Assembly: GCA_035559535.1 (NCBI GenBank)
Contig: DATMBG010000032.1
Location: 62,001-126,000, forward strand
DNA length: 64,000 nt
Origin: Candidatus Limnocylindrales bacterium
Lineage (GTDB): Bacteria; Moduliflexota; Moduliflexia; Moduliflexales; JAUQPW01
Reading direction: 5' to 3'
Shown in pieces: positions 317 to 33,580 of the stretch. The notes below the pieces were generated by a model that was not told where the DNA came from, searched no databases, and saw only the letters and a program-made list of their open reading frames with translations. Both the position numbers and the translations under genes were made by a program. Every line of letters begins with the position of its first letter. Position 1 is the stretch's first letter.

Positions 317-318
317 AC

Positions 319-8575: not shown

Positions 8576-8848
8576 CTAAGGCATGTACTCGGCCAGAGCC
8601 GTATCGAGTTCTGCCGGGTCTACCTGCTCTCCATTGTTTAGCCTTTGTAAGAATTGATTGATAATTGCCTTGGCTTCTTCTTTCCGGTAATTGCGAAGGA
8701 AACCTTCGTAAAAAGAATCTCCTGCCAGGGCCCGATTGATCTCCTGCTCTTTGTTATGCTCATTAAGCTCTGTAAAATAAACAACCCGATATTTTTTATC
8801 ATAACTGCGCTCGCGGTAAATTTCGAATAAAGTTTTATCCGATTCCAT
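8576..8848 (-). CDS. Hypothetical protein (90 aa)
   Basis: AAGGAG Shine-Dalgarno upstream; protein-like composition (YRVVYFTELNEHN). Confidence 0.7.
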   Translation of the reverse strand: MESDKTLFEIYRERSYDKKYRVVYFTELNEHNKEQEINRALAGDSFYEGFLRNYRKEEAKAIINQFLQRLNNGEQVDPAELDTALAEYMP

Positions 8849-9023
8849 AAGCCTATCAAACTCCTTTTATTGATCTGGGATGAATAATCCTTGAAAAAAG
8901 AAAGTCATTAACCTGTCCTCTATAAGGGAAAACTTATTGTCAAAATAAAGTTAAGGGTATTATTAATTAAGAGGTAATCAACAAGCGTATAAATGTCAAG
9001 ATAGTTTTGCTCAGGAGAAGGAT

Positions 9024-10454: not shown

Positions 10455-10583
10455 GCAGTCTATAAGTATCTCTCAGCTCACAAAAAGCTTCTCGCAGAGG
10501 CGTGGAGAGGATAAAGAAAAATCCCTACCATTTCCATAAGCACAAGGCAGGCTTTGCGCATTTGCGAGGGGTAATCGAAATCC

Positions 10584-11729: not shown

Positions 11730-11735
11730 ACCTGA

Positions 11736-13028
11736 CTATTTCCCCCAGGTTGCCAACAGACCAAGGGTAGCTGCGAGCATGATAAGGGTTGTTATCCACC
11801 CTAAGATTTTGAGGGGCAAGGAGAGGGTAAATTTGCCCATTACTTTAGGATCTGAGGCCATAAACATCATCACTATGATGATCGGTACGGCAATGATCCC
11901 ATTGATGACTGCGGCCCAAACCAGGGCCTTAATGGGATTAATATGAAAGAAATTCATAACCAGACCGAGGAGCGTTGCAACTGTGAGAACTCCATAAAAT
12001 CCCTTTGCCTCCAAAGGCTTTCGCTCAAGACCCACCGGCCATTTAAGGGCCTCTCCGACTGCATAGGCCGCCGAGCCTGCTAGAACCGGGACTGCCAATA
12101 AACCTGTACCTATAATACCCGCTGCAAAAAGGAGGAAAGCAAAACGACCGGCAACCGGTTCTAAGGCTTGAGCCGCCCGGGCCGCCGTCTCAACATCCGC
12201 TTGTCCCTGGGTGTGAAGGGAGACTGCAGCGGTCAGCATGATGAAATACCCCACTCCGTTGGAAACTGCCATTCCCATATAAGTATCGAACCTGATCCGA
12301 TTCAGTTGCTCTGGAGCCTGCCGGGGATCCTTCTTAAGCGGTCGATCCCCCGGAGTATTCTTTACCTCCTCAACCTCTTGAGAAGCCTGCCAAAAGAACA
12401 AATAGGGACTGATCGTTGTACCAAGTACCGCAATGAACATGGTAATGTTTCCAGGTTCAAAGGAAAGAGATGGTAGGAAGGTTGCCCGAATTGCCTGACC
12501 CCATGGAATAGGGACGACAAAAACGGTGGCAATATAGGAAAATAAAGCCAGGGTAAGCCACTTGAGGTATTTAACATATCGCGTATAAGGTATAAAAATT
12601 TGAAGGATGAGCGAGATTAAAGAGAAAACCAGCACATATAAAAGCAAAGGTCCACCGATCACAAGTTGTAGAGTAGCTCCCATGGCACTGATATCTGCAC
12701 CCAACGTAATGACATTGGCCAGGAAGAGCAAAGGCACCAGGGTATATAGGAACCAGGGACTATAATAATGACGGATGTTTCCCGCTATCCCCCGACCGGT
12801 AACCCGACCAACCCGGGCACTAATCTCCTGAACTACACTCATCAAGGGATAGGAAAATAACATTGTCCATAGCATCCCACAACCGAACTGGGCTCCCGCT
12901 TTAGAATAAGTAACAATTCCACTGGGATCATCATCTGAAGCCCCGGTGATAAGCCCTGGACCCAATTGCTGGAAAAAGCTTTTACCCATCGCTTTGGCTT
13001 TTATCCATTTATTTTTATTCCTGGCCAT
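11736..13028 (-). CDS. Nramp-family divalent metal transporter
   Basis: GPGLITGASDDDPSGI, GTTISPYLFFWQ motifs; multiple TM segments. Confidence 0.88.
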   Translation of the reverse strand: MARNKNKWIKAKAMGKSFFQQLGPGLITGASDDDPSGIVTYSKAGAQFGCGMLWTMLFSYPLMSVVQEISARVGRVTGRGIAGNIRHYYSPWFLYTLVPLLFLANVITLGADISAMGATLQLVIGGPLLLYVLVFSLISLILQIFIPYTRYVKYLKWLTLALFSYIATVFVVPIPWGQAIRATFLPSLSFEPGNITMFIAVLGTTISPYLFFWQASQEVEEVKNTPGDRPLKKDPRQAPEQLNRIRFDTYMGMAVSNGVGYFIMLTAAVSLHTQGQADVETAARAAQALEPVAGRFAFLLFAAGIIGTGLLAVPVLAGSAAYAVGEALKWPVGLERKPLEAKGFYGVLTVATLLGLVMNFFHINPIKALVWAAVINGIIAVPIIIVMMFMASDPKVMGKFTLSLPLKILGWITTLIMLAATLGLLATWGK

Positions 13029-13383
13029 TTGAAAACACCCTCGAAAACAGGCCCTTGACTTTAAAAAAACCTTCCCCCTGGAAGATAAAATAACAGTTGC
13101 TACTATTTTTATATTTTACCATATTTTAAAACAAAACCGTCTCTCTGACGAGGGAAATTTTAACCTAAGCTAGGAGGCAGGTCGATTCGCGGTCATTGTC
13201 TGGGATTTCAAGGAGAAGTCTTCGTCTCAAATCATCTTTTCTTGAAACTTGAAAAAGTGGGGATAGGGTAGGGTATATCCTCTGAAGCTATTTTGCAATT
13301 AAGAGAATTAACGGTTATGGTCGACGAAGCCATCCCAAAATCCGGAAAGGATGGTTTTGCTCAAAGGACCCGGGAGGATGAGG

Positions 13384-13449
13384 TAGGGGGAAGTTTTTGC
13401 CGGTGGGTCACCGGATGGTGTCCTGGCCCTTAGCAAATACTTCCCCCTG
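13384..13449. terminator. Inverted repeat downstream of heme-binding protein gene (terminator-like)
   Basis: AGGGGGAAGTTTTTGC ... GCAAATACTTCCCCCT complementary arms. Confidence 0.5.
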
Positions 13450-13475
13450 GCCGGGGTTTTACGTTTCAGGGTTGA

Positions 13476-14246
13476 CTATTTGCCCAGGGTGCAGGGATCG
13501 CCGTCCGTGCTGGTAGTAGCCGGTGCAGGATCTATAAAGAAAGGAGCTGCGGTCTGTAAGGCAGAAGGAGCCTGATAATCGGATGCAGCGCCTGGTTGAT
13601 CGGCTTTCGTCCCGGCTTCGGCTACGTCCTCATCTTCTTCAACTCCATCTCCACTCACCCCGATGGCACCTACTAAGGTATCATTAATACCGTCTCCGTT
13701 GGAGTCTTTGTATAGAGGAAGACCTCCTGGGAACTGAATGATTCCCCCCACAAATCCTTCTGTTTTTGCATTGCCTTTAACGGCAGGAGCCAGGTTACTG
13801 TTTCCAATCATCCATAGAACGCCTAAAGCAGGGGTCGCTCCGGGATGATTGGTGGCAGTTACTGCCTGGGATAAACATCCAATACTCCGGCTGGAAAGAG
13901 CATTTTCATTACTGCTGAAGGCCCGGGCCGTGTTTGCTTTAGCCCGTGCAATATCAATGCTTCCTGCCCAGGCATCGGGCATAGATCTAAATTCAATGAT
14001 CTTCCCATCCCTATCTACACAGGCAATATGCATTTTCGTGGTTGTACCGGAGGGTACTCGCAATGCAGAAGCTTCAACGTTGGCCTGTGCCTCTGCGGCT
14101 GCTATAATCAAGTCACAATCTGCCTTTGTAAGCTCCACGTGTGGAGCCGCAAAGGCATCTGGAATCCCTGCGGGTGTGATGAAATTAATCAAGAAAAAGA
14201 CAAACAAGAAAAAGACAAAATTGAATATAAATAATTTTGCTATCAT
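13476..14246 (-). CDS. Exported GlcG/HbpS-family heme-binding protein
   Basis: N-terminal signal peptide; IACVDRDG, SIDIARAKANTA, FPGGLPLY, VGAIGVSG, EDEDVAEAG motifs; AGGAGG SD. Confidence 0.85.
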   Translation of the reverse strand: MIAKLFIFNFVFFLFVFFLINFITPAGIPDAFAAPHVELTKADCDLIIAAAEAQANVEASALRVPSGTTTKMHIACVDRDGKIIEFRSMPDAWAGSIDIARAKANTARAFSSNENALSSRSIGCLSQAVTATNHPGATPALGVLWMIGNSNLAPAVKGNAKTEGFVGGIIQFPGGLPLYKDSNGDGINDTLVGAIGVSGDGVEEDEDVAEAGTKADQPGAASDYQAPSALQTAAPFFIDPAPATTSTDGDPCTLGK

Positions 14247-14916: not shown

Positions 14917-15777
14917 TTATCCCAGTTCTTCTTCTTTTTTTCCTGCGGCAGGGAAAAAAAGAGGCTGACCGAACTTCTCTACTCCAAAAGTTCTGATCAG
15001 GTCTTGAGCTTCAGGAGAAACCATGAAATCACTGAAAGCTTTAGCTCCTGCTGCATTTACTTTAGGCCACTTCATCGGATTAACTTCGATAACATGATAA
15101 ATGTTTAGCAAGGATTTATCCCCTTGTAGAAGGATATCCAGATTGAGTGTTTTCTTCAGTGCCAGGTAAGTTCCTCGATCCGTTAAAGTATAGGCCTTTT
15201 TTTCTGAGGCAATTCCCAGCGTTTGGCCCATTCCCTGGCCGGATTCTTGATACCAGGCCTGGCCTGCCGGAGTGATTCCGATGCTTTTCCAGAGTTTTTT
15301 CTCTAACTGATGGGTTCCGGAGTTATCCCCTCGGGAGATAAACAAGGCTCCGGTATCGGCTATTTTTTTCAACCCTTCCGAAGCCGATGAAGTGCCTTTG
15401 AGTCCGGCAGGATCCTCCGGAGGCCCTACAAAGATGAAATCATTATACATGACCAGGCGTCGGTTCACCCCAAATCCGTTTTCTATAAACTTCTTCTCGG
15501 CCTCGGGAGCATGAACCAACAACACATCAGCTTCTCCCCGCTCTCCCAGAGCCATGGCCTGCCCTGAACCGACCGAAATGGTTTTTACCCTGTATCCCGT
15601 CTTTTTTTCAAAGACGGGGATTAAGACGTCTAAGAGTCCGGAGTCTTGGGTACTGGTAGTGGTGGCCAGGATAAGATCCTTTTGCTCCGGATAAGGTTGA
15701 GCCTGGGAAAATCCTATGAGAATCTGGAAAATAAAGACTGTAATTAAGGGGAAGAGGAAAGTACGACGTCTACGCAT
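14917..15777 (-). CDS. tupA: Tungstate ABC transporter substrate-binding protein TupA
   Basis: Signal peptide; ATTTSTQDSGLL, GEADVLLVHAP, FISRGDNSGTH, AYTLTDRGTY signature motifs. Confidence 0.9.
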   Translation of the reverse strand: MRRRRTFLFPLITVFIFQILIGFSQAQPYPEQKDLILATTTSTQDSGLLDVLIPVFEKKTGYRVKTISVGSGQAMALGERGEADVLLVHAPEAEKKFIENGFGVNRRLVMYNDFIFVGPPEDPAGLKGTSSASEGLKKIADTGALFISRGDNSGTHQLEKKLWKSIGITPAGQAWYQESGQGMGQTLGIASEKKAYTLTDRGTYLALKKTLNLDILLQGDKSLLNIYHVIEVNPMKWPKVNAAGAKAFSDFMVSPEAQDLIRTFGVEKFGQPLFFPAAGKKEEELG

Positions 15778-15800
15778 AGGAACTTCCTCCTGGAAATATA

Positions 15801-15835
15801 TAAAGCAGAAGCAGGTAGGGATTGCTTCTGCTTTA
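15801..15835. terminator. Stem-loop between porin and tupA
   Basis: TAAAGCAGAAGCA-N9-TGCTTCTGCTTTA perfect 13-bp stem. Confidence 0.55.
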
Positions 15836-15846
15836 CACTTTAAACA

Positions 15847-16971
15847 TTAAAATACAAACTGGGCTTGGAATCGGAAGGCAGATTCTGTCTCCTGGGCTTC
15901 CGATTGAAACGAGACGATATCATAGTTAAACATGAGTCGAACCGATTTCTGTAAATATAGATTAACCCCCGGGGTTATAAGATAAGACGCATCATCGTCT
16001 TTATCTCGATTGGGGTCTGCATAATCAAACCGAAAAAGTGGCTCTATGAAGCTCATCCATCTGTTATGGAGCTCAAACCGATATCCTGCGTTGACTTGAA
16101 ATCCAAATAAGGTAGGAACATCTTGGGTCAGGAATACGTTTGTATTTCCTACTTTGGGTCCCTGGTAATTATCGGCAACATCCAAGTCCGCCTGCACATA
16201 GAGCCCTTTAGTTTTTCCCTGTTCATAAAGGAAATCAATTCCAAAGGCCTGGGCATTGGCCGATTCAGTGGGCGGCAAGGGATTTGAAGCAATTGGAACG
16301 CCTTCGTAGTTATTATTGGCGAAGGCAAAGCCCACATCGAACTTCTTGAGAGGGGAGACGACCACCCGAGCAATTAACTCTTTGCCATTGTCCGTGTCTA
16401 ATCTATTGGCAGGTCCTCCATTGGTAATGCTTAAAGCATAGCGGATGGGCGTTGAGCTTTCGAACTTTCCTTCAAACTGAACCCCGATATCCCGGTTCGT
16501 ATAGTTCAGAATATCCAGTAAATCGAACAGCGCGGTTCTTCCTAAACCTCGGATACGAACCCCCCGCTCAATGGGGAGGTGAGTTGTCGCAGAGAGGATT
16601 TCAAGTAAAAAAAAGGGCCGCTTGTACTGACCAATGCGGATATTAAACCGGGGATCGAAATTAAGGAGTAGGTAGGCGTCTCGGAGTATATCCGTGCTTG
16701 AAGCTGCATCAATCATGATTCTTCCCGATAGCCAATCACTCAGGACGGCATCTGCAGTCAATCGAGCCCTTCGAACTTCAAAAGAGCTGTCTACCTGATC
16801 TTCTACGGAACTGGTGGAAAATTGAAAATGGGCATATCCTCCAATGGTGAGTTTAACTGCTTGATTTGGAAAGATATTAATCGTTGGCTTGGGCTCCTCT
16901 GCAGCCAGAACCAGTAAAGAGGTAATCCATAAAACAACCGGTACAGCAAGGGGAATCCATTTACTTTGCAT
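15847..16971 (-). CDS. Outer-membrane porin (OprO/OprP-like anion-selective)
   Basis: Signal peptide; FEVRRARL, DAY, RIGQYKRPF, RDIGVQ motifs; C-terminal QFVF. Confidence 0.8.
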   Translation of the reverse strand: MQSKWIPLAVPVVLWITSLLVLAAEEPKPTINIFPNQAVKLTIGGYAHFQFSTSSVEDQVDSSFEVRRARLTADAVLSDWLSGRIMIDAASSTDILRDAYLLLNFDPRFNIRIGQYKRPFFLLEILSATTHLPIERGVRIRGLGRTALFDLLDILNYTNRDIGVQFEGKFESSTPIRYALSITNGGPANRLDTDNGKELIARVVVSPLKKFDVGFAFANNNYEGVPIASNPLPPTESANAQAFGIDFLYEQGKTKGLYVQADLDVADNYQGPKVGNTNVFLTQDVPTLFGFQVNAGYRFELHNRWMSFIEPLFRFDYADPNRDKDDDASYLITPGVNLYLQKSVRLMFNYDIVSFQSEAQETESAFRFQAQFVF

Positions 16972-17172
16972 GTCTGTCCTTTTTATATCTTATATTGAGC
17001 TTAACCTGGAGCAGTCTGAAAAAGTACGCGAAATCCTGAGGTCTGTTTTCAAGACTCCCCCGACTAAACTCAATTTGAGCTGTTGACTTGTGAACTATCT
17101 GGGATCGAATTCAGGCCAAGTCGTTTGAATTTTATCCGATCCTACCAACCGCAGGTTGCTATTCCCTATCAC

Positions 17173-17724
17173 CTACTCTCGACCTGCGGGAAGAATCCTA
17201 AGGGTGGTCACCTGCCTCACCCAACGGGCATGACGTTTCTCATCGGGAATAACGATATGTAGAGGCCCTTCTGGAGCCGACAGTGGCCGACCATCTCGTC
17301 GGTCTGCAAGAAGGACCAGACGATCCGTAAATGACGGATCGAGTTCGGGTAATGCAAAAACTACTTGATACCCGTCTGCGGCTTGAACAAGCAAATATCT
17401 GGCAAGCTGTTTACCACGTAACTCCCTGCCGAATTTCACACCTGCAAGTTGCAGAATGTCTACCAGGGGAACTCCTTCATAGGTTGCCTCTTTCCCTTCA
17501 TGATCCCTGACCTGTACCGTACGACGGGGGAGTTTTGCCAAATCAGATTCCTCTAGCCTAAGGGGATGTTCTACTTCGCCGACCACCATCAGAAGGGAAT
17601 TGGCCACAGGTGAATTCGGCTCCGGGGTCTGTCCAACGGCTATAATGGGGTAAAGGAAAATGATCAGACAGATAATAAAACAGGAACCATACAAAGAGAT
17701 AAATTTGAATTTTGTCTGTTTCAT
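17173..17724 (-). CDS. Exported molybdopterin-oxidoreductase-like (Oxidored_molyb fold) protein
   Basis: Signal peptide; YEGVPLVDIL, AADGYQVVF, GPLHIVIPDEK..RWVRQV motifs. Confidence 0.75.
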   Translation of the reverse strand: MKQTKFKFISLYGSCFIICLIIFLYPIIAVGQTPEPNSPVANSLLMVVGEVEHPLRLEESDLAKLPRRTVQVRDHEGKEATYEGVPLVDILQLAGVKFGRELRGKQLARYLLVQAADGYQVVFALPELDPSFTDRLVLLADRRDGRPLSAPEGPLHIVIPDEKRHARWVRQVTTLRILPAGRE

Positions 17725-18803
17725 GGATGGTGCTCTGCCTGGGAAAGAAGAACTGGATAGAATAACGGCTGTCCGAATTTATCTTTCCCAAACTCCTGGA
17801 TAATTCTCTGTTCCTGGGAGGTTAACCAGCCGATTAAAGCCATAGCCATCACATACTTAACCTGAGGATGTTTGAGTGGGTTAACAGCTATGATGCTGTA
17901 GGGGTTGAAGAGGACAGGATCTCCTTCGAAGAGGAGGGCCAGGTTGGACTGTTGTGGGAGGGTTAAAAAGGTACCTCGATCTGTAAGGGTGTAAGCTCCC
18001 TGCTTCTGGGCCATTTGAAGGGTCTCTAACATACCCTTTTTAGTCTCTACATACCACTTACCTTGAGGATTTATCCGGGCTAACTCCCAGATTTCTTTCT
18101 CTTTACAGTGGGTTCCGGAATCATCCCCTCGAGATAGGAAAAGGGCCTGTTGCCTGGCTATCCGTTTGAAAGCATCTACGGCCGTTTTAGCCAGGCTAAC
18201 CTGGGCCTGATCTTGAGGAGGTCCTACTAAGACAAACTGATTGTACATGATATCTCGACGATTAACCCCATGACCCTCTTGAAGAAATCGCTCTTCTAAC
18301 TTCCGGGCATGAACCAGTACGGCATCCACCTGTCCTGCTGCAGCCAACTCTAGCGCCTTTCCGGTACCCACCGGATAGACCTCTACTTTTATGTTAAATT
18401 GCCTTTCAAAGGGTGAAAGCAGGACGGACAACAACCCGGAACTAACCACACTGGTAGTCGTGGAGAGTTTGAGGCGTTTAAATATGCGGGTAAATTCATC
18501 CTGAACAAAATTCTCCACCTTTTCCCTAAAGACCAGATATTTGGAAAGCCATTCTTTACCTTCTGGGGTAAGTCGGCAGTGGGCCTCTCCACCTCCACCC
18601 CATCGCATCTGTACGAATTTAATCCCCGACGCCGCCTCCATTTTTCGAAGTAACCCCCAGGCGTTCCGATAGGACATCTTGCATTGTTCCACGGCTTCCT
18701 TTAAAGAACCCGACGCTTCAATTGCTGTAAGAAGCTTTGCAGATCGATCATTGAGAATGATCTTCCCTCCCATTTCAAGCCAGATATCCGATTTAGCTTC
18801 CAT
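17721..18803 (-). CDS. ModE-type winged-HTH fused to TupA-like tungstate-binding domain
   Basis: N-term LLTAIEASGSLKEAVEQCKMSYRNAWGLL..LTPEG (ModE HTH); C-term STTTS, LVHA, SRGDDSGTH, YTLTDRGTF (TupA); no signal peptide; start taken at ATG 18803. Confidence 0.88.
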   Translation of the reverse strand: MEAKSDIWLEMGGKIILNDRSAKLLTAIEASGSLKEAVEQCKMSYRNAWGLLRKMEAASGIKFVQMRWGGGGEAHCRLTPEGKEWLSKYLVFREKVENFVQDEFTRIFKRLKLSTTTSVVSSGLLSVLLSPFERQFNIKVEVYPVGTGKALELAAAGQVDAVLVHARKLEERFLQEGHGVNRRDIMYNQFVLVGPPQDQAQVSLAKTAVDAFKRIARQQALFLSRGDDSGTHCKEKEIWELARINPQGKWYVETKKGMLETLQMAQKQGAYTLTDRGTFLTLPQQSNLALLFEGDPVLFNPYSIIAVNPLKHPQVKYVMAMALIGWLTSQEQRIIQEFGKDKFGQPLFYPVLLSQAEHHP

Positions 18804-18834
18804 AACTTTCTCAGGGTTCAAAGGGTTATGAAAT

Positions 18835-19623: not shown

Positions 19624-19653
19624 GAAAAAGAAGGGGGAGCGCTGGCTCCCCCT
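19624..19653 (-). terminator. Rho-independent terminator closing the tes-pls operon
   Basis: Minus strand AGGGGGAGC-CAGC-GCTCCCCCT followed by TCTTTTTC, about 20 nt after the stop codon. Confidence 0.8.
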
Positions 19654-23404: not shown

Positions 23405-25207
23405 CTACTTCCGACCTTCACCCCTCATCAATTCTGCAACGTGGTGAACGAACCGAGCTGCCGTACCGATGATCCCTTTATAGTGGGGGATCTTGTACAT
23501 AGGCCGTTTCAGTTCGGGATGGTCTTCTACATAAGCTTTGATTTCTTCCAAAGTATAGCCGGTAGCCTCCAAAACACGTTTGAATTCTTCTTTGGCTTTG
23601 ACTTTCGCTTCACCCAAGGCCATTTGAACCCGACTATGGGCATTGATCTCACCTTCACCGGAGGTTTCAATGGGGAGGTAAATCATATCCTTGTACATAC
23701 CCATCACGGCGGATTGAACCCCATCACTTTGGGTACTGGGCATACACCCAAAAGGCTTCAGCGAGAGAACCATGTGACAGAGGTCTTTATTATGGTAGTA
23801 GATATTTTTAGCCACTTCCAAATGACCTTCTCCTCCGCCTGCACGGGAATTATACATGGGATGGGCAATTCGTTGGAGTTCGTATTGATCCGTTAACCCG
23901 TGGGCCGTTCCGCCCAAAGCTTCCCGGAGTCGGTTGTATTCCCGGGCAAAGATTTTCTCGGCGATGGTCAGTTGGGCCAGCTTGCTATAGCAATTCTTGA
24001 GCGCCTTGACCCGTTTATGATATTCCCACCACTCTGGAGTGGGTTCCCCTTCTATCAGGCCCTTCCGGTCCCGAATCCCTTGCTTGGCTTGATGGATCAT
24101 ATAATTAATCCAGGTAGCAATGGGTTCTACCAGAACCTCTGCACCTTCCCGTTCCAGGAATCGGAACATATTAAAATTTCCATCGCCTTCCGTGGTTTGG
24201 GCCCAGAATTCACCGGTAATTTTTACAATGGGTTTCACCCGGGTACGATCGACTTCGATCTGGTTGAAGCGATCCCGAACGTTTCTAAGTGCACCGGTAT
24301 AGTAATCACTGAACAATTGGTTTAAAAACTTTCCAATCATCTCTGCGGTATCCATCAAATTGGGCATTTTATTGAGAATTTTTCCCAAAATCCCCTTGAT
24401 TTCCCAATATTCCTTCTTTTTCATAACCTCGTGCATGTAATCCATAATTTCCCGCAGAGCCAGATCGGTTGCGCCTGGTTTGACCTCAAAAGGCCGAATC
24501 TGGTAGGAGACCTCGTTGATTAAGTCCCCGATATTGAAGGCGTTTAGCAATCCCATAAAGAACTTAACGTTCATCTCAAGTCCGGCTTCCACTTCACTCT
24601 GATTTAACCCACCGGATTGCTGGAACAATAAAACCCGGAACCCATCAAATCCTGCATTTTGTAACGCCAGTCGGTATTCGGCCTCATACATTCCGAACCG
24701 GCAAGGTCCACAAGCCCCGGCGGTAATGAACACATAGTTATCGATAATTTCCTTTTTGGACAGACCCTGGGCTTCTAAATTTTGGAGATACTTCACCAGG
24801 TTTCCAACGGTAAAGTAAGTGGGATTGCATTGACCGTTGTTGCCATACTCCTTCCCGAGTTGGAAGGATTTTACATCCGGGGTGGGTAGATAGTTGGGTT
24901 TATAGCCCAGTCCTTCCAGGGCTCCATGGACCAGGTGTTCGTGCTTCCAGGTTAATCCACCAAAAAGAATGGTCGTATGACCTCGTTGGTCCCGGGTAAA
25001 GGGGTTTTCTTGGGGTCTTGTAAAGTGTTGAACGGTCTTTTTCTGAATACCTGCTTCCCTTTCTAACCGGGCTCTTTCTTCATTCAACCTTTGTTGAATT
25101 AAATCTTCCAGAGAATGACCTGGAGCAGGGTCCTTTTTGTAGGGGTGACCGTTGGGATTTCCGTTTTGTTCTATGACCGGTAAGCTCATATGAGAAGAAT
25201 CTGCCAT
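23405..25207 (-). CDS. PlsR-like / 2-hydroxyacyl-CoA dehydratase-like Fe-S reductase component
   Basis: GQCNPTYFTVG, ACGPCRFGMY, KITGEFW, GGEGHLEV, KPFGCMPS motifs; adjacent to activase gene. Confidence 0.8.
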   Translation of the reverse strand: MADSSHMSLPVIEQNGNPNGHPYKKDPAPGHSLEDLIQQRLNEERARLEREAGIQKKTVQHFTRPQENPFTRDQRGHTTILFGGLTWKHEHLVHGALEGLGYKPNYLPTPDVKSFQLGKEYGNNGQCNPTYFTVGNLVKYLQNLEAQGLSKKEIIDNYVFITAGACGPCRFGMYEAEYRLALQNAGFDGFRVLLFQQSGGLNQSEVEAGLEMNVKFFMGLLNAFNIGDLINEVSYQIRPFEVKPGATDLALREIMDYMHEVMKKKEYWEIKGILGKILNKMPNLMDTAEMIGKFLNQLFSDYYTGALRNVRDRFNQIEVDRTRVKPIVKITGEFWAQTTEGDGNFNMFRFLEREGAEVLVEPIATWINYMIHQAKQGIRDRKGLIEGEPTPEWWEYHKRVKALKNCYSKLAQLTIAEKIFAREYNRLREALGGTAHGLTDQYELQRIAHPMYNSRAGGGEGHLEVAKNIYYHNKDLCHMVLSLKPFGCMPSTQSDGVQSAVMGMYKDMIYLPIETSGEGEINAHSRVQMALGEAKVKAKEEFKRVLEATGYTLEEIKAYVEDHPELKRPMYKIPHYKGIIGTAARFVHHVAELMRGEGRK

Positions 25208-25225
25208 TCTACACCTCTAAAAAGA

Positions 25226-25349
25226 GAAGGTATGGGGGCATGGAAGGAAGTATGGGAGTGTGGGGGTGGGGGAGTGGGGGAGATAAAACTTCTATGCTCC
25301 CATACTCCCATACCTCCCTACTCCCATACTTTCATACTCCCATACCTCC
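25226..25349. repeat. Inverted array of degenerate octamers (TATGGGAG / CTCCCATA) forming a long hairpin
   Basis: G-rich left arm and CTCCCATA tandem units in right arm, intergenic inside operon. Confidence 0.85.
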
Positions 25350-25356
25350 GGTTGGA

Positions 25357-26352
25357 TCATGTAAATAACAACGTAGGAAGGGAGCTCCACAAACCCTTAA
25401 TCGAGTAAAGGACTTCAACCTCACCGCGGCAGTTATACCAGCAAGCGTCGCAGGTATTCATTTCATTTTCTCGCTTCAAGGCAGCCAGGGTTTTTTCAAT
25501 GGGTAACTCCGTAATTTTACCTATAGAAGCCTGACGATGTTCCACACATTTAGATACTTGAGAGAAATTATCGATATTGAAGAAGGATCTTCCGGCGTGG
25601 CATCCCGAGATACCTCCGGTAGTCAGGAATTGATCAAAGTTACCTAAGAACACCGGGTTAGAGAGGAAGTTTTTATACTTCTTCTTCAATTTCAGCAGAT
25701 GTTCTGTGGCCTCCTTTCCGAAACGATATTTCTGTTCCCCGGTTTTCATGGTACTATAGGGTTGAACCATGAAATAGGCATTGTGCTTGGCCGCTAATTG
25801 GATCAATCCTTCAATATCGTCCAGGTTATCATGGAACAAGACCGTCATCAGATTAACCCGTTGGTATCTCCGAATACGTTCCTCAGAGAAAAACTTCAAA
25901 GCCCTCACGGCCCGTTCATGGGAGCCTTCTCGCCCCCGCATGGCATCATGTTTTTTGGGGTCCAGATAATCGATCGAGACGCTGGCCCCCCATAAACCGG
26001 CTTCATAAACCCTTCGGGCCAATTCACGGGTAATCATCCATCCATTGGTGGTTACAAAGGGAAAGTGATACTTCGCCAGAATGGAAATAATTTCAGGTAG
26101 ATCCTTCCGAAGAAAAGGTTCTCCACCTGCAATGTTGATCATGAGAGAACCAAACTGCGCCAGCTTTTCCGCTCCTATTCGAAAATCCTCTAAGGTTGCC
26201 TCGTTTTTGGGGCGTTCCTGCCAGTAATAGCAAAAAGAGCATTTGTAATTGCACCAATAGGTAACCTGCCATGAACACCAAACCGGGTTTCCTTTCAAGT
26301 AACTCCAGACCAGACGCAGCTTTTTCACAAACGGCGATAACTCACCCTTCAT
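25357..26352 (-). CDS. Uncharacterised radical SAM protein with twitch/SPASM-like C-terminus
   Basis: CNYKCSFC, AGGEPFLR, HDAMRG, C-terminal CHAG...C...CDACWYNC; no cobalamin-binding domain. Confidence 0.88.
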   Translation of the reverse strand: MKGELSPFVKKLRLVWSYLKGNPVWCSWQVTYWCNYKCSFCYYWQERPKNEATLEDFRIGAEKLAQFGSLMINIAGGEPFLRKDLPEIISILAKYHFPFVTTNGWMITRELARRVYEAGLWGASVSIDYLDPKKHDAMRGREGSHERAVRALKFFSEERIRRYQRVNLMTVLFHDNLDDIEGLIQLAAKHNAYFMVQPYSTMKTGEQKYRFGKEATEHLLKLKKKYKNFLSNPVFLGNFDQFLTTGGISGCHAGRSFFNIDNFSQVSKCVEHRQASIGKITELPIEKTLAALKRENEMNTCDACWYNCRGEVEVLYSIKGLWSSLPTLLFT

Positions 26353-26463: not shown

Positions 26464-28545
26464 TTATTGGTCGAGCTCAATCTGAATTAACGAGGAGGTT
26501 CCAACTTCTGGCGCCACGGGTTCCTTCAGAACGTATTGGCGGTACAGTTTGGCCATTTGTGCATTTTCCCTCTCCCGGCGCAGTCTCTCTTCCCGGGCCT
26601 TTCGCTTTTCTTCCCGGGCATTCTTGGCAATACCTAATTCATCCAGGTCGGTCTGGGCCCCTGCTGCCACATGTTCTGGATTTACAACCAGGGAGTGCTC
26701 GGTACTCTCCAGATTCACCTTTCTCCCACCGGTAAAAATTTCATGCCGCCCATGCTCCTCATACCATTTGGCCAATGTGGCTGTCATATGCATTTTCTCG
26801 ACAATCTTCCGCCAGCCTACTCCGGTGTTATAAGCACAAAACGAAATCTCTCCCTCTTGCGTAGCATAGGGAATAATACATTGCTCGGTTCGTCGAAAAT
26901 CATAATTAAACAAATCCTGGAACCACATTCCGGCTATAAACAGGAAATTCCAACGATCGCTCCGCCGCTTCTGAATGTCTTCCATGGTCCGATCGGCGGT
27001 TACCTTACCGTAATTTCTTCCCGTTGCCCCGAAGGACTTATCGAACTTCACCAGCAGATCCGTCAGCTTGAAATGGGTAGGAGCCTGGAAGGGATCGTAG
27101 TTCCGGATCAGGGACAGGGCCATCCCCAAAATCGATAACCACTTCCCTCGGGCTGCATCATTTACCTTGGCTATGTCTCTGGCTAAACGATCTGCGTTCA
27201 AGAAAGCCGTAACCGGTACCGCCTCTTTGGTTTCCTTATCTACCATGATGGCCATTCCAACCCCACAGTTGGGATGACACCCACAACTCACCTGCCCCCA
27301 GTCTGCTTGAGGTCCATGCACCAGATCTGACCAATCAGAAAAGGTACTTATAAACGAAATGGGGAACCAATCCCGGGCAGGTTCTCCAATACCCAGTTGA
27401 TTTTTCACATCGTGTGCCAGATGGGACAGGGTATACCGTTGGGCCATGCGCCGTTCATCGGTAATGTTTTCATCTCGACCGGTAAAAGATACCGGTTGAA
27501 AGGCACAAAATGCGATCTTTTTCGGGTTATCCAGGGCAAATTGGATGATCCTTCCCACCTGTTCATTGTTGATGCCGTTCACAATGGTAACCACCAGGAT
27601 AATCTCAACCCCTGCATTATGCAGATTCTCAATCGCTCGCAATTTTACATCAAAAAGATTACCCACCCGCCGGTGTGAGTTGGCGGCATTGCCGATTCCA
27701 TCAAATTGTAGATAAACATACCGTAAACCGGCTTCTGCGGCTTGCTTGCAGAATTCCGGACTCTTGGCAAACTCAATCCCATTGGTGGCGGCCTGTACAC
27801 TGTTATACCCTAACTTGCGGGCATAACGGATGGCTTCAATAAAGTGGGGAGATAACGTCGGCTCTCCACCCGAGAACTGAACCGATAACTGACGACGGGG
27901 CTTAATAGAAATAGCATTGTCCAGAAGCGTTTTGATTTCTTCCCAGGTCAATTCATGGACAAATCCCACCTGATTTGCATCCATGAAGCAGGGATCACAC
28001 ATCATGTTGCAGCGGTTGGTCAGGTCAATGGTTAAAACGGCCCCACGCCCACTCTTGATGGTACTGCTTCCATGATTATGAAGTGCCTCATCATTATGGG
28101 CCCGAATATCTCGACCGGGGAATACCTCCTCCAGATGCCGGGTGAAGGCGGGATCAATGGATAGGACATCTTCAAAGTGCCCATGCTTTGGACAATCTTT
28201 AACCATCAAAATCTTACCATCTCGCTCAATAATCTGAGCCTTAATCTCCCCAATCCTTTCCGTACGCAGAATTTCTTGAGGAAGTTTACCGTTGAGAATC
28301 TGCTCCCTGATTTCAGGAACACATCTCGGACATAAAGAATCCGTGGTTCTCGGCCATCCCAGGGTCGGTCTGGTTTTTTGATAAGACTTTAAGAGCGGCT
28401 TGTCAGACCACCGGGGAATGAAGGAAGGGTTAGGTCTGATACGATTAAGCCTCTCAAACACAAACCAGGCTGCATTGGCCACATAGGTTAATCCCTTTTC
28501 TACATACTTCACCGGTTTATGCTTACGTTGATGGGCAACAATCAT
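26464..28545 (-). CDS. tes: Tetraether lipid synthase (Tes/GDGT-MAS)-like radical SAM enzyme
   Basis: N-terminal TDSLCPRC...KDCPKHG rubredoxin-like site; IDLTNRCNMMCDPCF; QFSGGEPT; YLQFDG; FQPVSFTG; C-terminal CHPNCG, CIIPYA, ISFCAYN; AAGGAG SD. Confidence 0.82.
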   Translation of the reverse strand: MIVAHQRKHKPVKYVEKGLTYVANAAWFVFERLNRIRPNPSFIPRWSDKPLLKSYQKTRPTLGWPRTTDSLCPRCVPEIREQILNGKLPQEILRTERIGEIKAQIIERDGKILMVKDCPKHGHFEDVLSIDPAFTRHLEEVFPGRDIRAHNDEALHNHGSSTIKSGRGAVLTIDLTNRCNMMCDPCFMDANQVGFVHELTWEEIKTLLDNAISIKPRRQLSVQFSGGEPTLSPHFIEAIRYARKLGYNSVQAATNGIEFAKSPEFCKQAAEAGLRYVYLQFDGIGNAANSHRRVGNLFDVKLRAIENLHNAGVEIILVVTIVNGINNEQVGRIIQFALDNPKKIAFCAFQPVSFTGRDENITDERRMAQRYTLSHLAHDVKNQLGIGEPARDWFPISFISTFSDWSDLVHGPQADWGQVSCGCHPNCGVGMAIMVDKETKEAVPVTAFLNADRLARDIAKVNDAARGKWLSILGMALSLIRNYDPFQAPTHFKLTDLLVKFDKSFGATGRNYGKVTADRTMEDIQKRRSDRWNFLFIAGMWFQDLFNYDFRRTEQCIIPYATQEGEISFCAYNTGVGWRKIVEKMHMTATLAKWYEEHGRHEIFTGGRKVNLESTEHSLVVNPEHVAAGAQTDLDELGIAKNAREEKRKAREERLRRERENAQMAKLYRQYVLKEPVAPEVGTSSLIQIELDQ

Positions 28546-29026: not shown

Positions 29027-30925
29027 ATGGGATTCCTTACGAAATTTCTAAAAAGCCTGATTCGAGAACCCGATCAAAAAAAAGTAAAGATCAAGAAGAT
29101 CAGACCTCTGGGTAAAATTCGGCCCCGACATCTTCAAAAGGGGGGTTACTATATTGGATTAGAAATCTGGAAGCGGGGGTTAGAACAGTTCTTACGGGCC
29201 AATCAACGAGAAACCAAAATTGAGCGTGAGCGGGATCAGAATCTCCCCAGGGTTTACTATCAACTTCCGGATAGTGTGACCATTTCGGTAGGTAAAGAAA
29301 TCCGCAAGCACCTTAATTTACTCGAAGAGGATGCTGAAAGGGCCATTCAAGAAAGATATCAGGCCTTTGTCCGGGGTCATGCCCAGTATCGCGAAGAGGA
29401 TCATCGAGAGGGGATTCAGGTTCACTGGCAACTTAATCTCTACCTTCCCGATACGGGCTTTACTGCAGCCGTTCGAAGGTCTCCTTCCGACGAGGAGGTT
29501 GCGGCAAAATTGCGGCTTATAGAGCCTAAAGATGTTTTGTTGGAAACCAATGAATATCCTATTTTGAAATCCCAGGGAAATCTCTTTGTAGGAGCAGACG
29601 TGGGGGAGAATAATTTTCAAATTGAGACCCTGGCCAGGGATCATTTTTCCATCAACCGAATAGGAAAGAACTTCCAGGTTTTTCACACCGGATCTGAGGG
29701 AAAAACCGAAATTCAACGGGAGGGGAAAATTATTTCCCTTTCTTCAAAGGGGGATCGATTAATCCACGGAGATCGAATCCTGGCCTATTATGGGGGAACA
29801 ACCTATGTGTTTGAATTTACCGATCTGGAAGTCCCCTCATACCGGGAGCGGAGAGTTGCCTATCTCGAAGAACGAGCTTTTTATATCGTCACCCAGGATA
29901 CCTATGAATACCCCCGCGTATTCTTGGGGGAAATTCCCTCCGGTTCGTATCAGGCAGGTCCCTTTCTCCGGTGGTTTCTCCCAGAGTTTGAAAATGAAAA
30001 CTCCCCCGTGGTCATTTTTTATGAACCGACCAAGAAAAGGTTTTATCTTAAAACCTTATCCGAAAAAGTTCCGGTTAAGATAGGACCAGAGGAAATCTTC
30101 GTAGGAAAACATTTAACCCATGGGGATGTTCTGCAAATTGGAACCACGGAGCTACTTTTTGAAGAGTTTCAAAGCGAGGGGGTCGTACGTCTGGAAATCC
30201 TCTCCCCCCTGGTAGAGCATCCCCCTTACCGGTTAACCAAACAGGTTACGAAGCTCCGTCCTATTACCCTTTCGGGAAGTCAGAGTGGTCCCGGGTTTAT
30301 TTCTCTCCAGGATCCTAAACTTCCAGATGTGGCCGCACAAATTTACTATCAAGAACCCTATTTCTGGATCGAGATCGGTCAAAGAAAACCGGAAAAGTTG
30401 GCCTTCGGGCAGGAAATTCAACTGGGCCAATCGATCCTGCGAATTATGCGGACGTCTCTCCACCCCCGGTGGAAAGCCCGATTTACCTTGATTAACCGGG
30501 ATCAACGAAGGATTTATCCGCTGGCCAATATCCTTCAGGAAAGTTATGAAGAAAATAAGTGTATTCTGGGAGATGGGCCTTCCTTGACCCGTAATAGCTT
30601 TTGGTTAGAGGATGATATGGATGTGATATCGGAACAACATGCCCAGTTCAAAGCTAAAAGCCGGAAACTGGTCGAGATAACAAACTTAAGTACTTCCCGA
30701 CCTATCTGGATCCTGTCTCCCGGTGGGATTTTTTTAAAAGAACTTCTATGGGCAAAACCTGATGTCCATGGAAATATCATTTTACCCGGGGAGTCTATGG
30801 AACTACGCAAAAACCAACGAATTGTCATCGGACCCTATGAATTCGAGTATAATGGACCGGGTCCTTCTTCACTCCTGGGGTACGATGAAGCCGAAGCGAA
30901 GTTGAAAGATCCGTGGGAGAACTAG
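29027..30925 (+). CDS. Multi-FHA-domain protein (about four degenerate FHA-like repeats)
   Basis: Repeated FHA C-terminal signatures LIHGDRI, LTHGDVLQIGTTELLFE, LAFGQEIQLGQSILRI, LRKNQRIVIGPYEFEY; ISEQHAQF. Confidence 0.7.
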   Translation: MGFLTKFLKSLIREPDQKKVKIKKIRPLGKIRPRHLQKGGYYIGLEIWKRGLEQFLRANQRETKIERERDQNLPRVYYQLPDSVTISVGKEIRKHLNLLEEDAERAIQERYQAFVRGHAQYREEDHREGIQVHWQLNLYLPDTGFTAAVRRSPSDEEVAAKLRLIEPKDVLLETNEYPILKSQGNLFVGADVGENNFQIETLARDHFSINRIGKNFQVFHTGSEGKTEIQREGKIISLSSKGDRLIHGDRILAYYGGTTYVFEFTDLEVPSYRERRVAYLEERAFYIVTQDTYEYPRVFLGEIPSGSYQAGPFLRWFLPEFENENSPVVIFYEPTKKRFYLKTLSEKVPVKIGPEEIFVGKHLTHGDVLQIGTTELLFEEFQSEGVVRLEILSPLVEHPPYRLTKQVTKLRPITLSGSQSGPGFISLQDPKLPDVAAQIYYQEPYFWIEIGQRKPEKLAFGQEIQLGQSILRIMRTSLHPRWKARFTLINRDQRRIYPLANILQESYEENKCILGDGPSLTRNSFWLEDDMDVISEQHAQFKAKSRKLVEITNLSTSRPIWILSPGGIFLKELLWAKPDVHGNIILPGESMELRKNQRIVIGPYEFEYNGPGPSSLLGYDEAEAKLKDPWEN

Positions 30926-31000
30926 CGGGGAACAGAGGGGTGAGGAAGTGTGGGGAGATAGAAATCCCCCTCACATTTCTACACCCTCCTGTTGGTTTTA

Positions 31001-32602
31001 ATGACCGGTATTACTGCGGAAGAATTTATCCGACGCAAATCCCATAATCGACTCAAATTCGTAAGGGAAGTGGGTCGGGGTGGCTTTGGAACCGTCTATC
31101 AATTCGAGGATACGGCCACCCAGCAACCGGTCTGCGTAAAGGTTCTAAGTAATGATCTGTTTAACCGATTAGGAAAAGATGAACAGCGCCTGAAGTTCTA
31201 CGAACAGGAAATTCAAAATCTAGAGGCCTACCGGTTTAAATCCAATATCGCCCATTTATACGCACCCCTTTATGAAGATGAAACTTTTCAGTTTTCTCAA
31301 GGAGATCCTTACCTTTTCCTGGCCATGGAATTTGTAGAGGGGGAAGATTTAGGTTATGAAAAAAGTGCCATTGATAACTTCCGAATAGACCATACCGAAT
31401 TGGCCATTCATCTTATATTCCAGCTCTGTTCGGCCCTCCATAGCATCCACCTTCGAGGTCAATACCATCAAGATCTGTTTCCCGATAACCTTCGGGTTAG
31501 CATGGGTCCTTCAGGGAAAAAAGATCATCTGGTGGTATTGGACCTGGGTCATGTCCGGGCTTATAAACGGAAGTCCCACAGTGCCCTCTCCAATATCGGT
31601 ATGTACCATCCTCCTGAAACCATTTATAGTGGTTTCGAAAAATTCACCTCCATCCGTAATGAACGGATTCGATACTTCGACCGGAGCGATATTTTTTCCT
31701 TGGGGGCCCTTTTCTATGAAATGCTTCAACTGGCTCAGCATCCAGATGACCGCGGAGGACCCTTTACTTTTTTTAAAGATATTGCGGAGTCTTTCGAACT
31801 CTTTATTTTGTTTTATGAAACGTATACTGAAACAAGCGACCCGGATCTTTCCCAAAACTGGCGGGCTTGCTTCGAGAAGTACGATAAGCGAGGCCTCATT
31901 CCCAAGCATGAAGAAAAAAGAGAGAAGTTTAAAGATCTGCTCCAGGAGGTAGGTTTGGACACCCGCATTGCTGACAGCCTCCACCTCTTACCGTCCCATC
32001 GCCCGGATATCGAGACCCTTCTAACCATTTTCTGTAATTACTTCCTCAAACAAGGAAAAAGTCTCTTCCGAATAGGAGAACCTGCCGGCTATACCAAGTG
32101 CCTTTACTGGCTTGAACGGATCACCCGCCACTTTCGAGAAGTAGAGCAAGAGGCAAAAAGTAATGACTTTATATCTCTTCGGGATAACCCCATGCTCAAC
32201 CATATTCAACGTAACCTGAAAGTTTATATAGAGGCTTTGCTGGGGATTGGAAAGAGTTATTATCTCTTAAAGGATCCCTCCTGGGGAACCCATTTCAAAA
32301 AAGCCTGGTTTACCTTTAACCTGTTTGATCATACCCTTTCGATTTCTCAGAAGAAAGATATAGGGGCTAAAGCAGCCATCAATTACGCGTTTTATTTATC
32401 TGAGTTGAACAGACACCAGGAAGCCATAGAAATCCTGTGTCAGGTGGGAAGACCTTTACATCCTTCTCTACAGCCCATTTTTTTCAATAATCTGGGCTCG
32501 CTTTATCAACAAATTGGAAAAACCGATGAAGCCGAACAGTGCTTTAAACAGATGAAAATGGAGAGAAAAATGACTTCTATGCCACTGGGAGATGAGATTT
32601 AG
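31001..32602 (+). CDS. Hanks-type Ser/Thr protein kinase with C-terminal TPR
   Basis: VGRGGFGTVY, VCVK, LAMEFVEG, HQDLFPDN, DLG, YHPPE, SDIFSLG; NNLGSLYQQIGKTDEAEQCF TPR. Confidence 0.82.
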   Translation: MTGITAEEFIRRKSHNRLKFVREVGRGGFGTVYQFEDTATQQPVCVKVLSNDLFNRLGKDEQRLKFYEQEIQNLEAYRFKSNIAHLYAPLYEDETFQFSQGDPYLFLAMEFVEGEDLGYEKSAIDNFRIDHTELAIHLIFQLCSALHSIHLRGQYHQDLFPDNLRVSMGPSGKKDHLVVLDLGHVRAYKRKSHSALSNIGMYHPPETIYSGFEKFTSIRNERIRYFDRSDIFSLGALFYEMLQLAQHPDDRGGPFTFFKDIAESFELFILFYETYTETSDPDLSQNWRACFEKYDKRGLIPKHEEKREKFKDLLQEVGLDTRIADSLHLLPSHRPDIETLLTIFCNYFLKQGKSLFRIGEPAGYTKCLYWLERITRHFREVEQEAKSNDFISLRDNPMLNHIQRNLKVYIEALLGIGKSYYLLKDPSWGTHFKKAWFTFNLFDHTLSISQKKDIGAKAAINYAFYLSELNRHQEAIEILCQVGRPLHPSLQPIFFNNLGSLYQQIGKTDEAEQCFKQMKMERKMTSMPLGDEI

Positions 32603-32725
32603 GTAAGTTGTCTGTCATAGCTTTGTAGTAAAGATCCGGATGGCTTGTTTGCACAGATTATAGCCGGGCTTCAGGGCGAGGAAAGGAGGACTTCTACAAA
32701 ACAACGGACAACGAGGGATGGATCC

Positions 32726-33580
32726 ATGAAGATTTCTTGTTTTGCCATATCCTGTCCTGGTAAGGACACGGTGATCAATCAAGATCGATTTTTGTGTTTT
32801 AAAGAGATCTCAGATAAAATTCTTTTATGGGAAGATGGCTTTTTTAGTCTTCGAACCCAGGAGTATGTCCGGTATGGATATCTTTTTGCCATTGCCGATG
32901 GGCTTGGTGGCCATAATGCCGGGGAAGTAGCCAGTAACCAGGCCATTCGGCTTCTTTGGAAGCGGTATTATTCCGGTCACCCGGATCCCTCCCCGGATAT
33001 CCTGGATCGGCTCAGGGAAATCTTTCGCCAGGCCCATGAAGAGATCAGGATCCTTTCCCGTTCTAAATTTGAATACCGGGGAATGGGTACGACCCTTACC
33101 GCCGCTATCTTAAAGGAGGAAACCCTCTACTGGGCCCATATTGGAGACAGCCGCCTCTATAGAATTAATGATTCCCTGGGAATCCAACAGCTTACCGAGG
33201 ACCATACGTTAATAGCCCGTGGGATCCGGGAAGGTTTTTTAAACCAGGAAGATATTACAAAAAATCATAAAGGAGCACTTTACCAGGCTATTGCCGTAAG
33301 TCCCCAACTGGAAGTTCAAGTCGGTCAGCAAAGGCTCTCTCCTCCAGAGTGGATCTTGCTCTGCTCCGATGGGCTTACCGATGTGCTGGATGAAGGGGCA
33401 ATGGAAGAATTATTTAGAGGCCAGATCCTCAGGGAGGAAAATAGAAGGGCCTTTTCAAACGTACAGGCCCCTGTTTTGCTTTCTATGAGTCCAAAGGAAG
33501 CCTGTGAAAGGCTTGTAAAAGCTGCGGATAAGATGGGGCGGGAAGATGATGTGACCATTGTGGCGATTAAAATCGAATAA
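32726..33580 (+). CDS. PP2C/Stp1-family Ser/Thr phosphatase
   Basis: NQD, IADGLGGHNAGEVAS, GMGTT, HIGDSRLY, LLCSDGLTD, DDVTIV; start at ATG 32726. Confidence 0.92.
   Translation: MKISCFAISCPGKDTVINQDRFLCFKEISDKILLWEDGFFSLRTQEYVRYGYLFAIADGLGGHNAGEVASNQAIRLLWKRYYSGHPDPSPDILDRLREIFRQAHEEIRILSRSKFEYRGMGTTLTAAILKEETLYWAHIGDSRLYRINDSLGIQQLTEDHTLIARGIREGFLNQEDITKNHKGALYQAIAVSPQLEVQVGQQRLSPPEWILLCSDGLTDVLDEGAMEELFRGQILREENRRAFSNVQAPVLLSMSPKEACERLVKAADKMGREDDVTIVAIKIE

Follow-up and report, generated by a model that had tools for sequence, protein, structure and literature searches.

What is the function of the radical S-adenosylmethionine (SAM) enzyme encoded between a Tes-like gene and the genes for a putative ether-lipid reductase in Candidatus Limnocylindrales bacterium assembly GCA_035559535.1? 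The gene lies in a stretch of 64,000 nt (contig DATMBG010000032.1, positions 62,001 to 126,000; hereafter the window), and its 331 aa product was labelled P0001 (Table 1). P0001 probably belongs to the pathway by which bacteria make membrane-spanning and ether lipids. At the heart of this pathway would be a C-C coupling radical SAM enzyme, either of the Tes type or alternatively of a 470 aa SPASM type, together with a PlsA/Ger-like ester reductase. The favoured explanation, held with slightly less assurance, is that P0001 is a tailoring or accessory enzyme of this Tes/SPASM-synthase pathway. Enzyme class, cysteine pattern, gene order and phyletic pattern are established. A lipid role is proposed because of gene order in several lineages and the phyletic pattern (the latter partly confounded by ancestry), and the lipid substrate and the chemistry are inferred.

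The first-pass annotation described a 331 aa radical SAM protein, and the open reading frame (ORF) is indeed intact. Pfam Radical_SAM (PF04055) covers residues 29-186 with 96.7 bits against a cut-off of 29.5 (E = 2.1e-27), and a Pfam scan found nothing further at E≤0.01. P0001 contains nine cysteines (residues 26, 34, 38, 41, 251, 269, 301, 304 and 308). C34, C38 and C41 form the CX3CX2C motif of the SAM cluster. Neither these three nor the GGEP-type core vary when 24 members of the family, 49-80% identical to P0001, are aligned. The five C-terminal cysteines (C251, C269, C301, C304 and C308) are invariant both in this alignment and in a 17-row alignment with relatives down to 30-43% identity. 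They are arranged as C-x17-C over a predicted beta-hairpin followed by C-x2-C-x3-C-R-G, a layout for which twitch or truncated-SPASM type, with a predicted auxiliary Fe-S cluster site, is a fair description. Pfam SPASM (PF13186) aligns from 1 to 67 of its 67 positions in three of five members scanned, in each case below threshold (E = 0.0021, 0.006 and 0.17; 12.7-18.7 bits against a gathering score of 21.5), and has no match in P0001 itself at E≤10. The auxiliary cysteines called twitch-like at the outset are thus present, and the term is a description and not a Pfam assignment.

Only 33 residues precede the CX3CX2C motif, which excludes a cobalamin domain, and B12-binding PF02310 gave no match to P0001 even at E≤10. 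The earlier statement that the protein lacks a B12 domain, and is for that reason neither GrsA/B nor a class B methylase, is borne out, and P0001 is equally distinct from the cobalamin-type enzymes HpnP, HpnR and HpnJ. Membrane anchoring was rejected, as no transmembrane helix is predicted at a maximum 19-residue hydropathy of 1.05. An AlphaFold2 model from the 24-row alignment has a mean predicted local distance difference test score (pLDDT) of 91.1 and a predicted template modelling score (pTM) of 0.90. We read P0001, from these sequence features, as a catalytically competent radical SAM enzyme with one predicted auxiliary Fe-S cluster of the twitch/truncated-SPASM type.

On one strand of the window the order is the Tes-like gene (P0002), the P0001 gene, a PlsC-like gene (P0003) and a Pls-BBD gene (P0004), with a strong terminator-like hairpin only past the last gene. 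P0002 is 111 bp upstream of P0001 and P0003 149 bp downstream. The P0001 gene is real, as the same four genes occur in the same order, at 98% identity, in the sister genome G001. The position first assigned to it, between tes and an ether reductase, stands, although both names are homology labels. P0002 scores 323.9 bits with the Tes profile NF045702, under the cut-off of 450 bits, and is matched by Zn_ribbon_HMPTM (PF23545) at E = 4e-13. P0003 has no family match in Pfam and NCBIfam scans and shares 20-24% identity with residues ~1010-1400 of fused PlsA-like proteins (tblastn E = 1e-18 to 3e-24), while P0004 corresponds to the B-B-D part that the Ger architecture includes in the relevant section of Sahonero-Canavesi et al. 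Together, the C-terminal likeness of P0003 and the B-B-D domains of P0004 indicate that the reductase is a split, permuted relative of PlsA/Ger. Among nine species genomes of the window's own phylum, the P0001 ortholog and the 693 aa Tes-like gene are confined to the same two, and six of the other seven have a fused PlsA-like gene (matched N-terminal part 33-34% identical), which fits acquisition of the cluster as a unit.

Co-occurrence was counted in Planctomycetota and the window's own phylum and cross-tabulated by hand. The main sample, 151 genomes of the planctomycete class that includes G009, was scored for the P0001 ortholog (E≤1e-40), Tes (profile E≤1e-80), PlsA/Ger-like genes (E≤1e-60) and, as an anaerobe control, NrdD (PF13597). 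The ortholog was found in 52 genomes, Tes in 54 (53 over the curated cut-off), a PlsA/Ger-like gene in 67 and NrdD in 28. Genome-level co-occurrence with tes, a check proposed in the first-pass annotation, is clear, with 51 genomes having both genes, one the ortholog only (G290, a 1.9-Mb metagenome-assembled genome, MAG), three Tes only and 96 neither. The corresponding figures for the ortholog and PlsA/Ger-like genes are 51, 1, 16 and 83, and a PlsA/Ger-like gene is also present in all eight further carrier genomes examined. NrdD and Tes occur together in 24 genomes, with NrdD only in 4, Tes only in 30 and neither in 93; the ortholog tracks Tes far more closely than NrdD does.

A whole-phylum sample of 201 genomes contained a P0001-family match in 14, Tes over the cut-off in 6 and a Pls-like gene in 73. 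All seven of its genomes with a close ortholog have Pls, and Tes was found only in two of them (G009 and G133). Six carriers without a Tes-like match (G011, G049, G110, G127, G147 and G166) all encode a 470 aa SPASM radical SAM enzyme. On the other hand, there are genomes that have a synthase gene and no ortholog, namely G095, G120 and G152 with Tes over the cut-off and G037, G039, G051 and G078 with the 693 aa Tes-like type. The ortholog therefore implies a coupling-type synthase and not the reverse, a pattern expected of a tailoring or accessory enzyme. In one planctomycete lineage the 470 aa family replaces Tes as the partner (e.g. L001:6546-7958 and G166:C63:3367-4719). It may be a bacterial Mss- or Gms-like enzyme.

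Gene neighbourhoods were compared in the best 80 loci from a one-genome-per-species scan that gave 541 relatives in 600 candidate stretches. The records are labelled Planctomycetota in 73 cases, 'bacterium' only in six and Anaerolineaceae in one. When the available flanks of up to 8 kb were searched by tblastn with the four window proteins, two loci were linked, namely L004, where Tes directly precedes the ortholog, and L001, where a fused PlsA is located 1.9 kb upstream. Further queries revealed another radical SAM gene 24-373 bp upstream on the same strand in 14 of the 80, namely the 470 aa radical SAM/SPASM gene in three (L001, L007 and L009), a B12-type gene in ten and Tes in one. The SPASM gene also adjoins the ortholog in G166 and G147, and is 1.3 kb upstream in G254. 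A true Tes (576.7 bits) is divergent from the ortholog in G133, where a CDP-alcohol phosphatidyltransferase gene and a ceramidase-like gene are nearby, and fused PlsA is divergent from a 42% homologue in G205 and from a P0001-family gene in L129. A metagenome scan with P0001 yielded ten loci, none of which has tes or pls.

The B12-type radical SAM protein encoded directly upstream in ten of the 80 loci is 425-452 aa long (e.g. L021:6418-7776 and L030:6541-7815). Its nearest profiles are HpnJ and the B12 enzyme of the ladderane cluster, both with scores far under the cut-offs. A lipid enzyme resembling Grs or a methylase is one possibility.

A distant subfamily, 30-38% identical to P0001, was represented by eight loci (G032, G070, G117, G138, G139, G205, G206 and G227). 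Between one and three Zn-ribbon genes of the Tes superfamily are present in all eight, ketosynthase (KS) or FabA genes in four and short-chain dehydrogenase/reductase (SDR) genes in five, and all eight cluster cysteines are kept in the 17-row alignment. The order in G139 is TetR, fatty-acid hydroxylase, aminotransferase, two Zn-ribbon radical SAM genes, two SDR genes, the P0001-like gene, FabA and two ketosynthases. Operons of this type, at L126 (G139:C299) 7-13939 and also in L123, L125, L128 and L130, look like an uncharacterised lipid or polyketide pathway.

In a quick IQ-TREE gene tree of 109 rows, the eight distant-subfamily rows fall outside a group of 101 orthologs with a support of 100 (Shimodaira-Hasegawa-like approximate likelihood ratio test, SH-aLRT), and the Tes-, SPASM- and Pls-adjacent genes are placed in the deep, diverse branches of that group. 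P0001 belongs to a large uncharacterised family. A word-indexed search found 932 homologues at E≤1e-3. The best 120, each at least 50% identical, are from MAGs that carry the labels Planctomycetota, Binatia, Blastocatellia, Anaerolineae and Aureabacteria. When 1.84 billion cluster representatives were searched exhaustively, 89 clusters passed E≤1e-30 and 4,574 passed E≤1e-10. A full-text literature search found no paper describing the family. No fusion of the family with Tes was found in a search for Rosetta-stone proteins, the long matches being 26-31% identical and without the zinc ribbon. Among these, P0169, P0202, P0219, P0238 and P0253 consist of two or three radical SAM-SPASM modules fused in tandem, and some such fusions also carry a GT2 glycosyltransferase domain.

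Known identities were considered and set aside. No NCBIfam model approached its cut-off with P0001 (best 89 bits against 400). Membership of the heme-pathway families NirJ, AhbC and AhbD, defined by equivalog scores of 500-650 bits, was rejected on scores of 68.7-88.4 bits (NirJ2 88.4 against a cut-off of 500, AhbD 76.2 and AhbC 68.7). An anaerobic sulfatase-maturating enzyme (anSME) was rejected as there was no curated match. A maturase of ribosomally synthesised and post-translationally modified peptides was rejected given the gaps of 111 and 149 bp on either side of the gene, the second filled by a hairpin, and the 50-60% identity maintained across MAGs with different phylum-level labels.

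Several observations weigh against a lipid role. Some of them would be accommodated if P0001 were an unrelated housekeeping or cofactor-type enzyme of anaerobes, acting on a small molecule, a cofactor precursor or a protein, that is present in the cluster by chance or co-transfer and shares its clade and lifestyle with carriers of Tes and Pls. No Tes- or Pls-like gene was found in 78 of the 80 loci within the 8 kb flanks; the linkage of orthologs to tes/pls expected in the first-pass annotation holds for co-occurrence in genomes and not for physical linkage, which is the minority state. There is no adjacent radical SAM gene in 66 of the 80, and common neighbours are pyrimidine and purine genes, with a metallophosphoesterase gene also found. 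LolC/E-, LolD- and LolA-like genes are upstream of the ortholog in three of the ten metagenome loci, these three being soil contigs (L096:373-2437, L098:21-4220 and L102:6618-10732; in the tree their orthologs group with a protein labelled Blastocatellia). The gene tree includes one planctomycete clade of 79 rows (support 96) that is mostly unlinked, and the genomes with the four closest P0002 orthologs, planctomycetes in which P0002 is 54-57% identical, have no P0001 gene and no Pls within 9 kb. NrdD shows a similar concentration, as 26 of the 28 genomes that have it are Pls-positive and 24 are Tes-positive, so that clade and anaerobic lifestyle account for part of the signal. As they concentrate anaerobe genes in Tes/Pls genomes, the co-occurrence counts overstate independence; the counts are not independent and are inflated by shared ancestry. 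P0001 itself is small, has no transmembrane helix (maximum hydropathy as above) and lacks a lipid-binding alpha domain of the kind found in Tes and Gms. Its best profile matches are NirJ2, AhbD, MoaA, PqqE and GeoRSP-type enzymes, and its nearest solved folds, among them SkfB, BlsE, MoaA, anSME and viperin, have peptides or small polar molecules as substrates.

An enzyme unrelated to lipids is nevertheless unlikely. The match between the ortholog and Tes (51/1/3/96) is much tighter than that between NrdD and Tes (24/4/30/93), and Tes-negative carriers all encode the 470 aa SPASM enzyme, mostly from an adjacent gene. Adjacency to Tes, Pls or a lipid-type radical SAM gene recurs in several deep branches of the tree, the distant subfamily is always accompanied by Tes-superfamily genes, with KS or FabA genes in half of its loci, and no cut-off of a curated family was approached.

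If P0001 does belong to the lipid pathway, chemistry on the chains is probable, as opposed to chemistry on the head group or backbone. The N-terminal cluster would cleave SAM to give a 5'-deoxyadenosyl radical that takes a hydrogen from an unactivated lipid carbon, most likely in an alkyl chain, and the C-terminal cluster would accept or donate the extra electron or hold the substrate radical. Such chemistry would leave the chain altered, for example by a ring, by a desaturation, or by a cross-link or second C-C bond. The unassigned lipid-tailoring step originally suggested is supported by comparative genomics (51 of 52 carriers with Tes, a SPASM partner elsewhere and recurrent adjacency), and the choice offered between ring formation, second coupling and head-group chemistry is undecidable from sequence.

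A head-group or backbone enzyme, comparable to the archaeal calditol synthase Cds and acting on a polar alcohol or glycerol moiety instead of the chains, is improbable. Cds is a radical SAM precedent for head-group chemistry in the sections covered of a 2026 review of lipid radical SAM enzymes. In L004 the ortholog has a CDP-alcohol phosphatidyltransferase gene as its immediate neighbour, and in L111 there is one at a distance of 3.6 kb. P0001 has no additional lipid-binding domain, and polar small molecules are the substrates of BlsE, DesII, viperin, MoaA and other small twitch enzymes. However, there are just two phosphatidyltransferase neighbours of this kind, chain-modifying radical SAM partners are far commoner, and the setting of the distant subfamily among KS, FabA and SDR genes points to acyl-chain chemistry.

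A non-catalytic or auxiliary partner of Tes or the SPASM-type synthase, such as an electron relay or chaperone subunit, would fit an ortholog that is almost confined to genomes with such a synthase and often encoded directly downstream of it, but is very improbable given that the SAM-cluster cysteines and GGEP-type core are all invariant, that archaeal Tes and Thermotoga Mss are active when expressed alone (2026 review, in the sections covered), that seven genomes have Tes or Tes-like genes and no P0001 ortholog, and that the synthase and ortholog genes are far apart or on different contigs in most genomes.

The tailoring role favoured for P0001 can be made more specific. Its family would then supply the B12-independent tailoring activity still missing from the biosynthesis of tetraether-type lipids in bacteria, acting on the product of Tes or of the 470 aa SPASM enzyme, which is a rather unlikely proposal as it stands. 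Candidate steps would be a second chain-chain bond, converting an open glycerol trialkyl glycerol tetraether ('GTGT') to a glycerol dialkyl glycerol tetraether (GDGT), a cyclopentane ring, or the H-type bridge in branched GDGTs (brGDGTs). The distant subfamily would carry out an analogous step on carrier-bound acyl chains in operons with fatty-acid-synthase genes and two Tes-like genes. Branched GDGTs are widely used as temperature and pH proxies, and their biosynthesis in bacteria is partly assigned, with Mss and Ger shown and a bacterial Tes proposed. If the proposal were correct, the P0001 gene in a genome would predict specific brGDGT structures used as palaeoclimate proxies. The family is a concrete candidate in that it is near one-to-one with Tes in a bacterial class and has another coupling-type partner where Tes is absent, which also suggests adding the P0001 gene to metagenome screens for 'tes plus pls'.

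Table 1. Features of the four-gene cluster and its surroundings in the window.
Feature	Coordinates	Strand	Evidence
P0002, Tes-like radical SAM protein, 693 aa, N-terminal HMPTM-type zinc ribbon	26464..28545	-	NF045702, PF23545, PF04055
P0001, radical SAM enzyme, 331 aa, ATG start	25357..26352	-	ORF and PF04055
Intergenic hairpin of ~125 nt with 8-nt tandem repeats, then U-run and P0003 ribosome-binding site	25208..25356	-	RNA fold
P0003, 600 aa, distant homologue of the C-terminal domain of fused PlsA/Ger-like proteins	23405..25207	-	tblastn
P0004, PlsA/Ger-like ATPase and reductase part, 1249 aa	19672..23421	-	two BcrAD_BadFG and DUF2229
Terminator-like stem-loop, 9 pairs (7 G-C) and T-run	19632..19653	-	consensus scan only
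Tungstate/molybdate block	14917-18821	-	
Unrelated radical SAM ORF, 381 aa	10584-11729	+	
Ser/Thr kinase with TPR repeats, PP2C phosphatase and a further protein	29027-33580	+	

The hairpin between P0001 and P0003 folds with -74.2 kcal/mol (z = -6.68), a value equalled by none of 200 shuffles. One arm consists of five or six of the 8-nt tandem repeats and the other of their complement, and G001 keeps this architecture with other repeat numbers. It is possibly an attenuator, a terminator or an RNA-stabilising element, and its effect may be separation of the pls pair from the Tes-like/P0001 pair or attenuation between the two. The stem-loop that begins 19 bp past the P0004 stop is the likely end of the four-gene unit. 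By comparison with G001, P0004 probably starts at about residue 30.

In the class sample, 19 of the 54 genomes with Tes have a Pls piece less than 1 kb from it (coordinates compared by hand). The piece is mostly a separate ORF of ~440-450 aa that matches the PlsA C-terminal domain (e.g. G279:C7:23622-26759 and G333:C20:97572-100664), and in the window this conserved Tes-PlsC pair is interrupted by the P0001 gene. The tungstate/molybdate block directly downstream of the lipid cluster comprises a TupA-like binding protein, a porin, a small protein with a molybdopterin-oxidoreductase domain, and a ModE N-terminal domain fused to a TupA-like domain. The unrelated radical SAM ORF, 31% identical to P0001 over the core only, adjoins pyruvate kinase and Nramp transporter genes. 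Divergent from the Tes-like gene are the kinase and phosphatase genes, together with one for a protein with a weak, sub-threshold FHA-domain match.

Among enzymes of solved structure, SkfB (6EFN), BlsE (7VOB), CteB (5WHY), MoaA, SuiB and anSME are nearest to P0001 and share with it the radical SAM core, a beta-hairpin flanked by two cysteines and a CxxC segment (Foldseek E = 1.6e-15 to 1e-10; TM 0.58-0.68 normalised to the query). SkfB is also matched by sequence (phmmer E = 4.7e-15), yet identity to these twitch/SPASM enzymes is only 13-20%. The five-cysteine signature C-x17-C...C-x2-C-W-[YT]-x-C-R-G and a conserved hydrophobic C-terminal tail are specific to the P0001 family, and its genomic partners are lipid genes and not those for peptides or sugar nucleotides.

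Tes (GDGT-MAS, NF045702; PDB 7TOL and 7TOM) is a radical SAM enzyme with auxiliary Fe-S, as is predicted for P0001, has a phyletic pattern near-identical to that of the ortholog in the class sample, and is represented by Tes or Tes-like genes adjacent to P0001-family genes in the window, L004 and G133. P0001 is shorter (331 aa against roughly 500-700 aa), has no match to the PF23545 zinc ribbon that is a feature of Tes, and reaches 45.3 bits with the Tes profile over the core only, against a cut-off of 450. The Tes structures match the P0001 model with TM 0.51, at ranks 47-49. HpnH and the archaeal PTO1314 family (TIGR03961) are closer in length (~330-380 aa), HpnH has a lipid substrate, and they are the nearest clusters to P0001 by language-model features (score 0.98). 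The comparison with HpnH suggested in the first-pass annotation nonetheless separates them, as P0001 scores 83.2 bits with TIGR03961 over the radical SAM core only, against a cut-off of 306, and has no match to DUF3463, the C-terminal domain of HpnH, even at E≤10.

Gms and Mss are, like P0001, radical SAM enzymes without B12, and act on lipid chains. Gms, as described in the portion covered of PMC11186832, exceeds 420 aa and has four domains, among them one of six helices at the N-terminus and a complete SPASM domain that holds two auxiliary clusters; P0001, by description, differs in its 331 aa, five C-terminal cysteines and lack of the N-terminal domain. The sections covered also describe a lipid-binding alpha domain for Tes and Gms. 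The 2026 review covers Tes, Mss, Gms, GrsA/B, Gmm, Cds, HpnH/J/P/R, Jaw5 and the ladderane candidates, and no enzyme of the P0001 type appears in its outline and sections 2.2, 2.3, 2.6 and 5. Mss (482 aa, said in the portion covered to keep the Tes architecture) was compared with P0001 by length and description, and P0001 does not share that architecture. By the published criterion, Mss homologues match the Thermoanaerobacter ethanolicus or Thermotoga maritima protein at E≤1e-50 with 30% identity or more.

The closest parallel in gene arrangement is in Thermotoga maritima. In the sections covered of Sahonero-Canavesi et al. 2022 (PMC13159169), Mss is TM0824 (482 aa), in a 'potential operon' with a TetR gene and TM0825. 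The latter is up-regulated together with production of membrane-spanning lipids and yields no diacids when expressed alone in Escherichia coli. Among the best 150 cluster representatives, P0176 (316 aa) carries the P0001-family signature, but was rejected as a representative of TM0825 since its cluster is metagenome-only; P0207 and P0191 look like frameshifted high-GC sequences. By description in that source, TM0825 resembles P0001 in its similar size, its generic annotation and its location, immediately next to the gene for a larger radical SAM enzyme of the C-C coupling type. TM0824 and TM0825 look like the same kind of pairing as synthase and P0001, and the same logic may explain the presence of TM0825 beside Thermotoga Mss.

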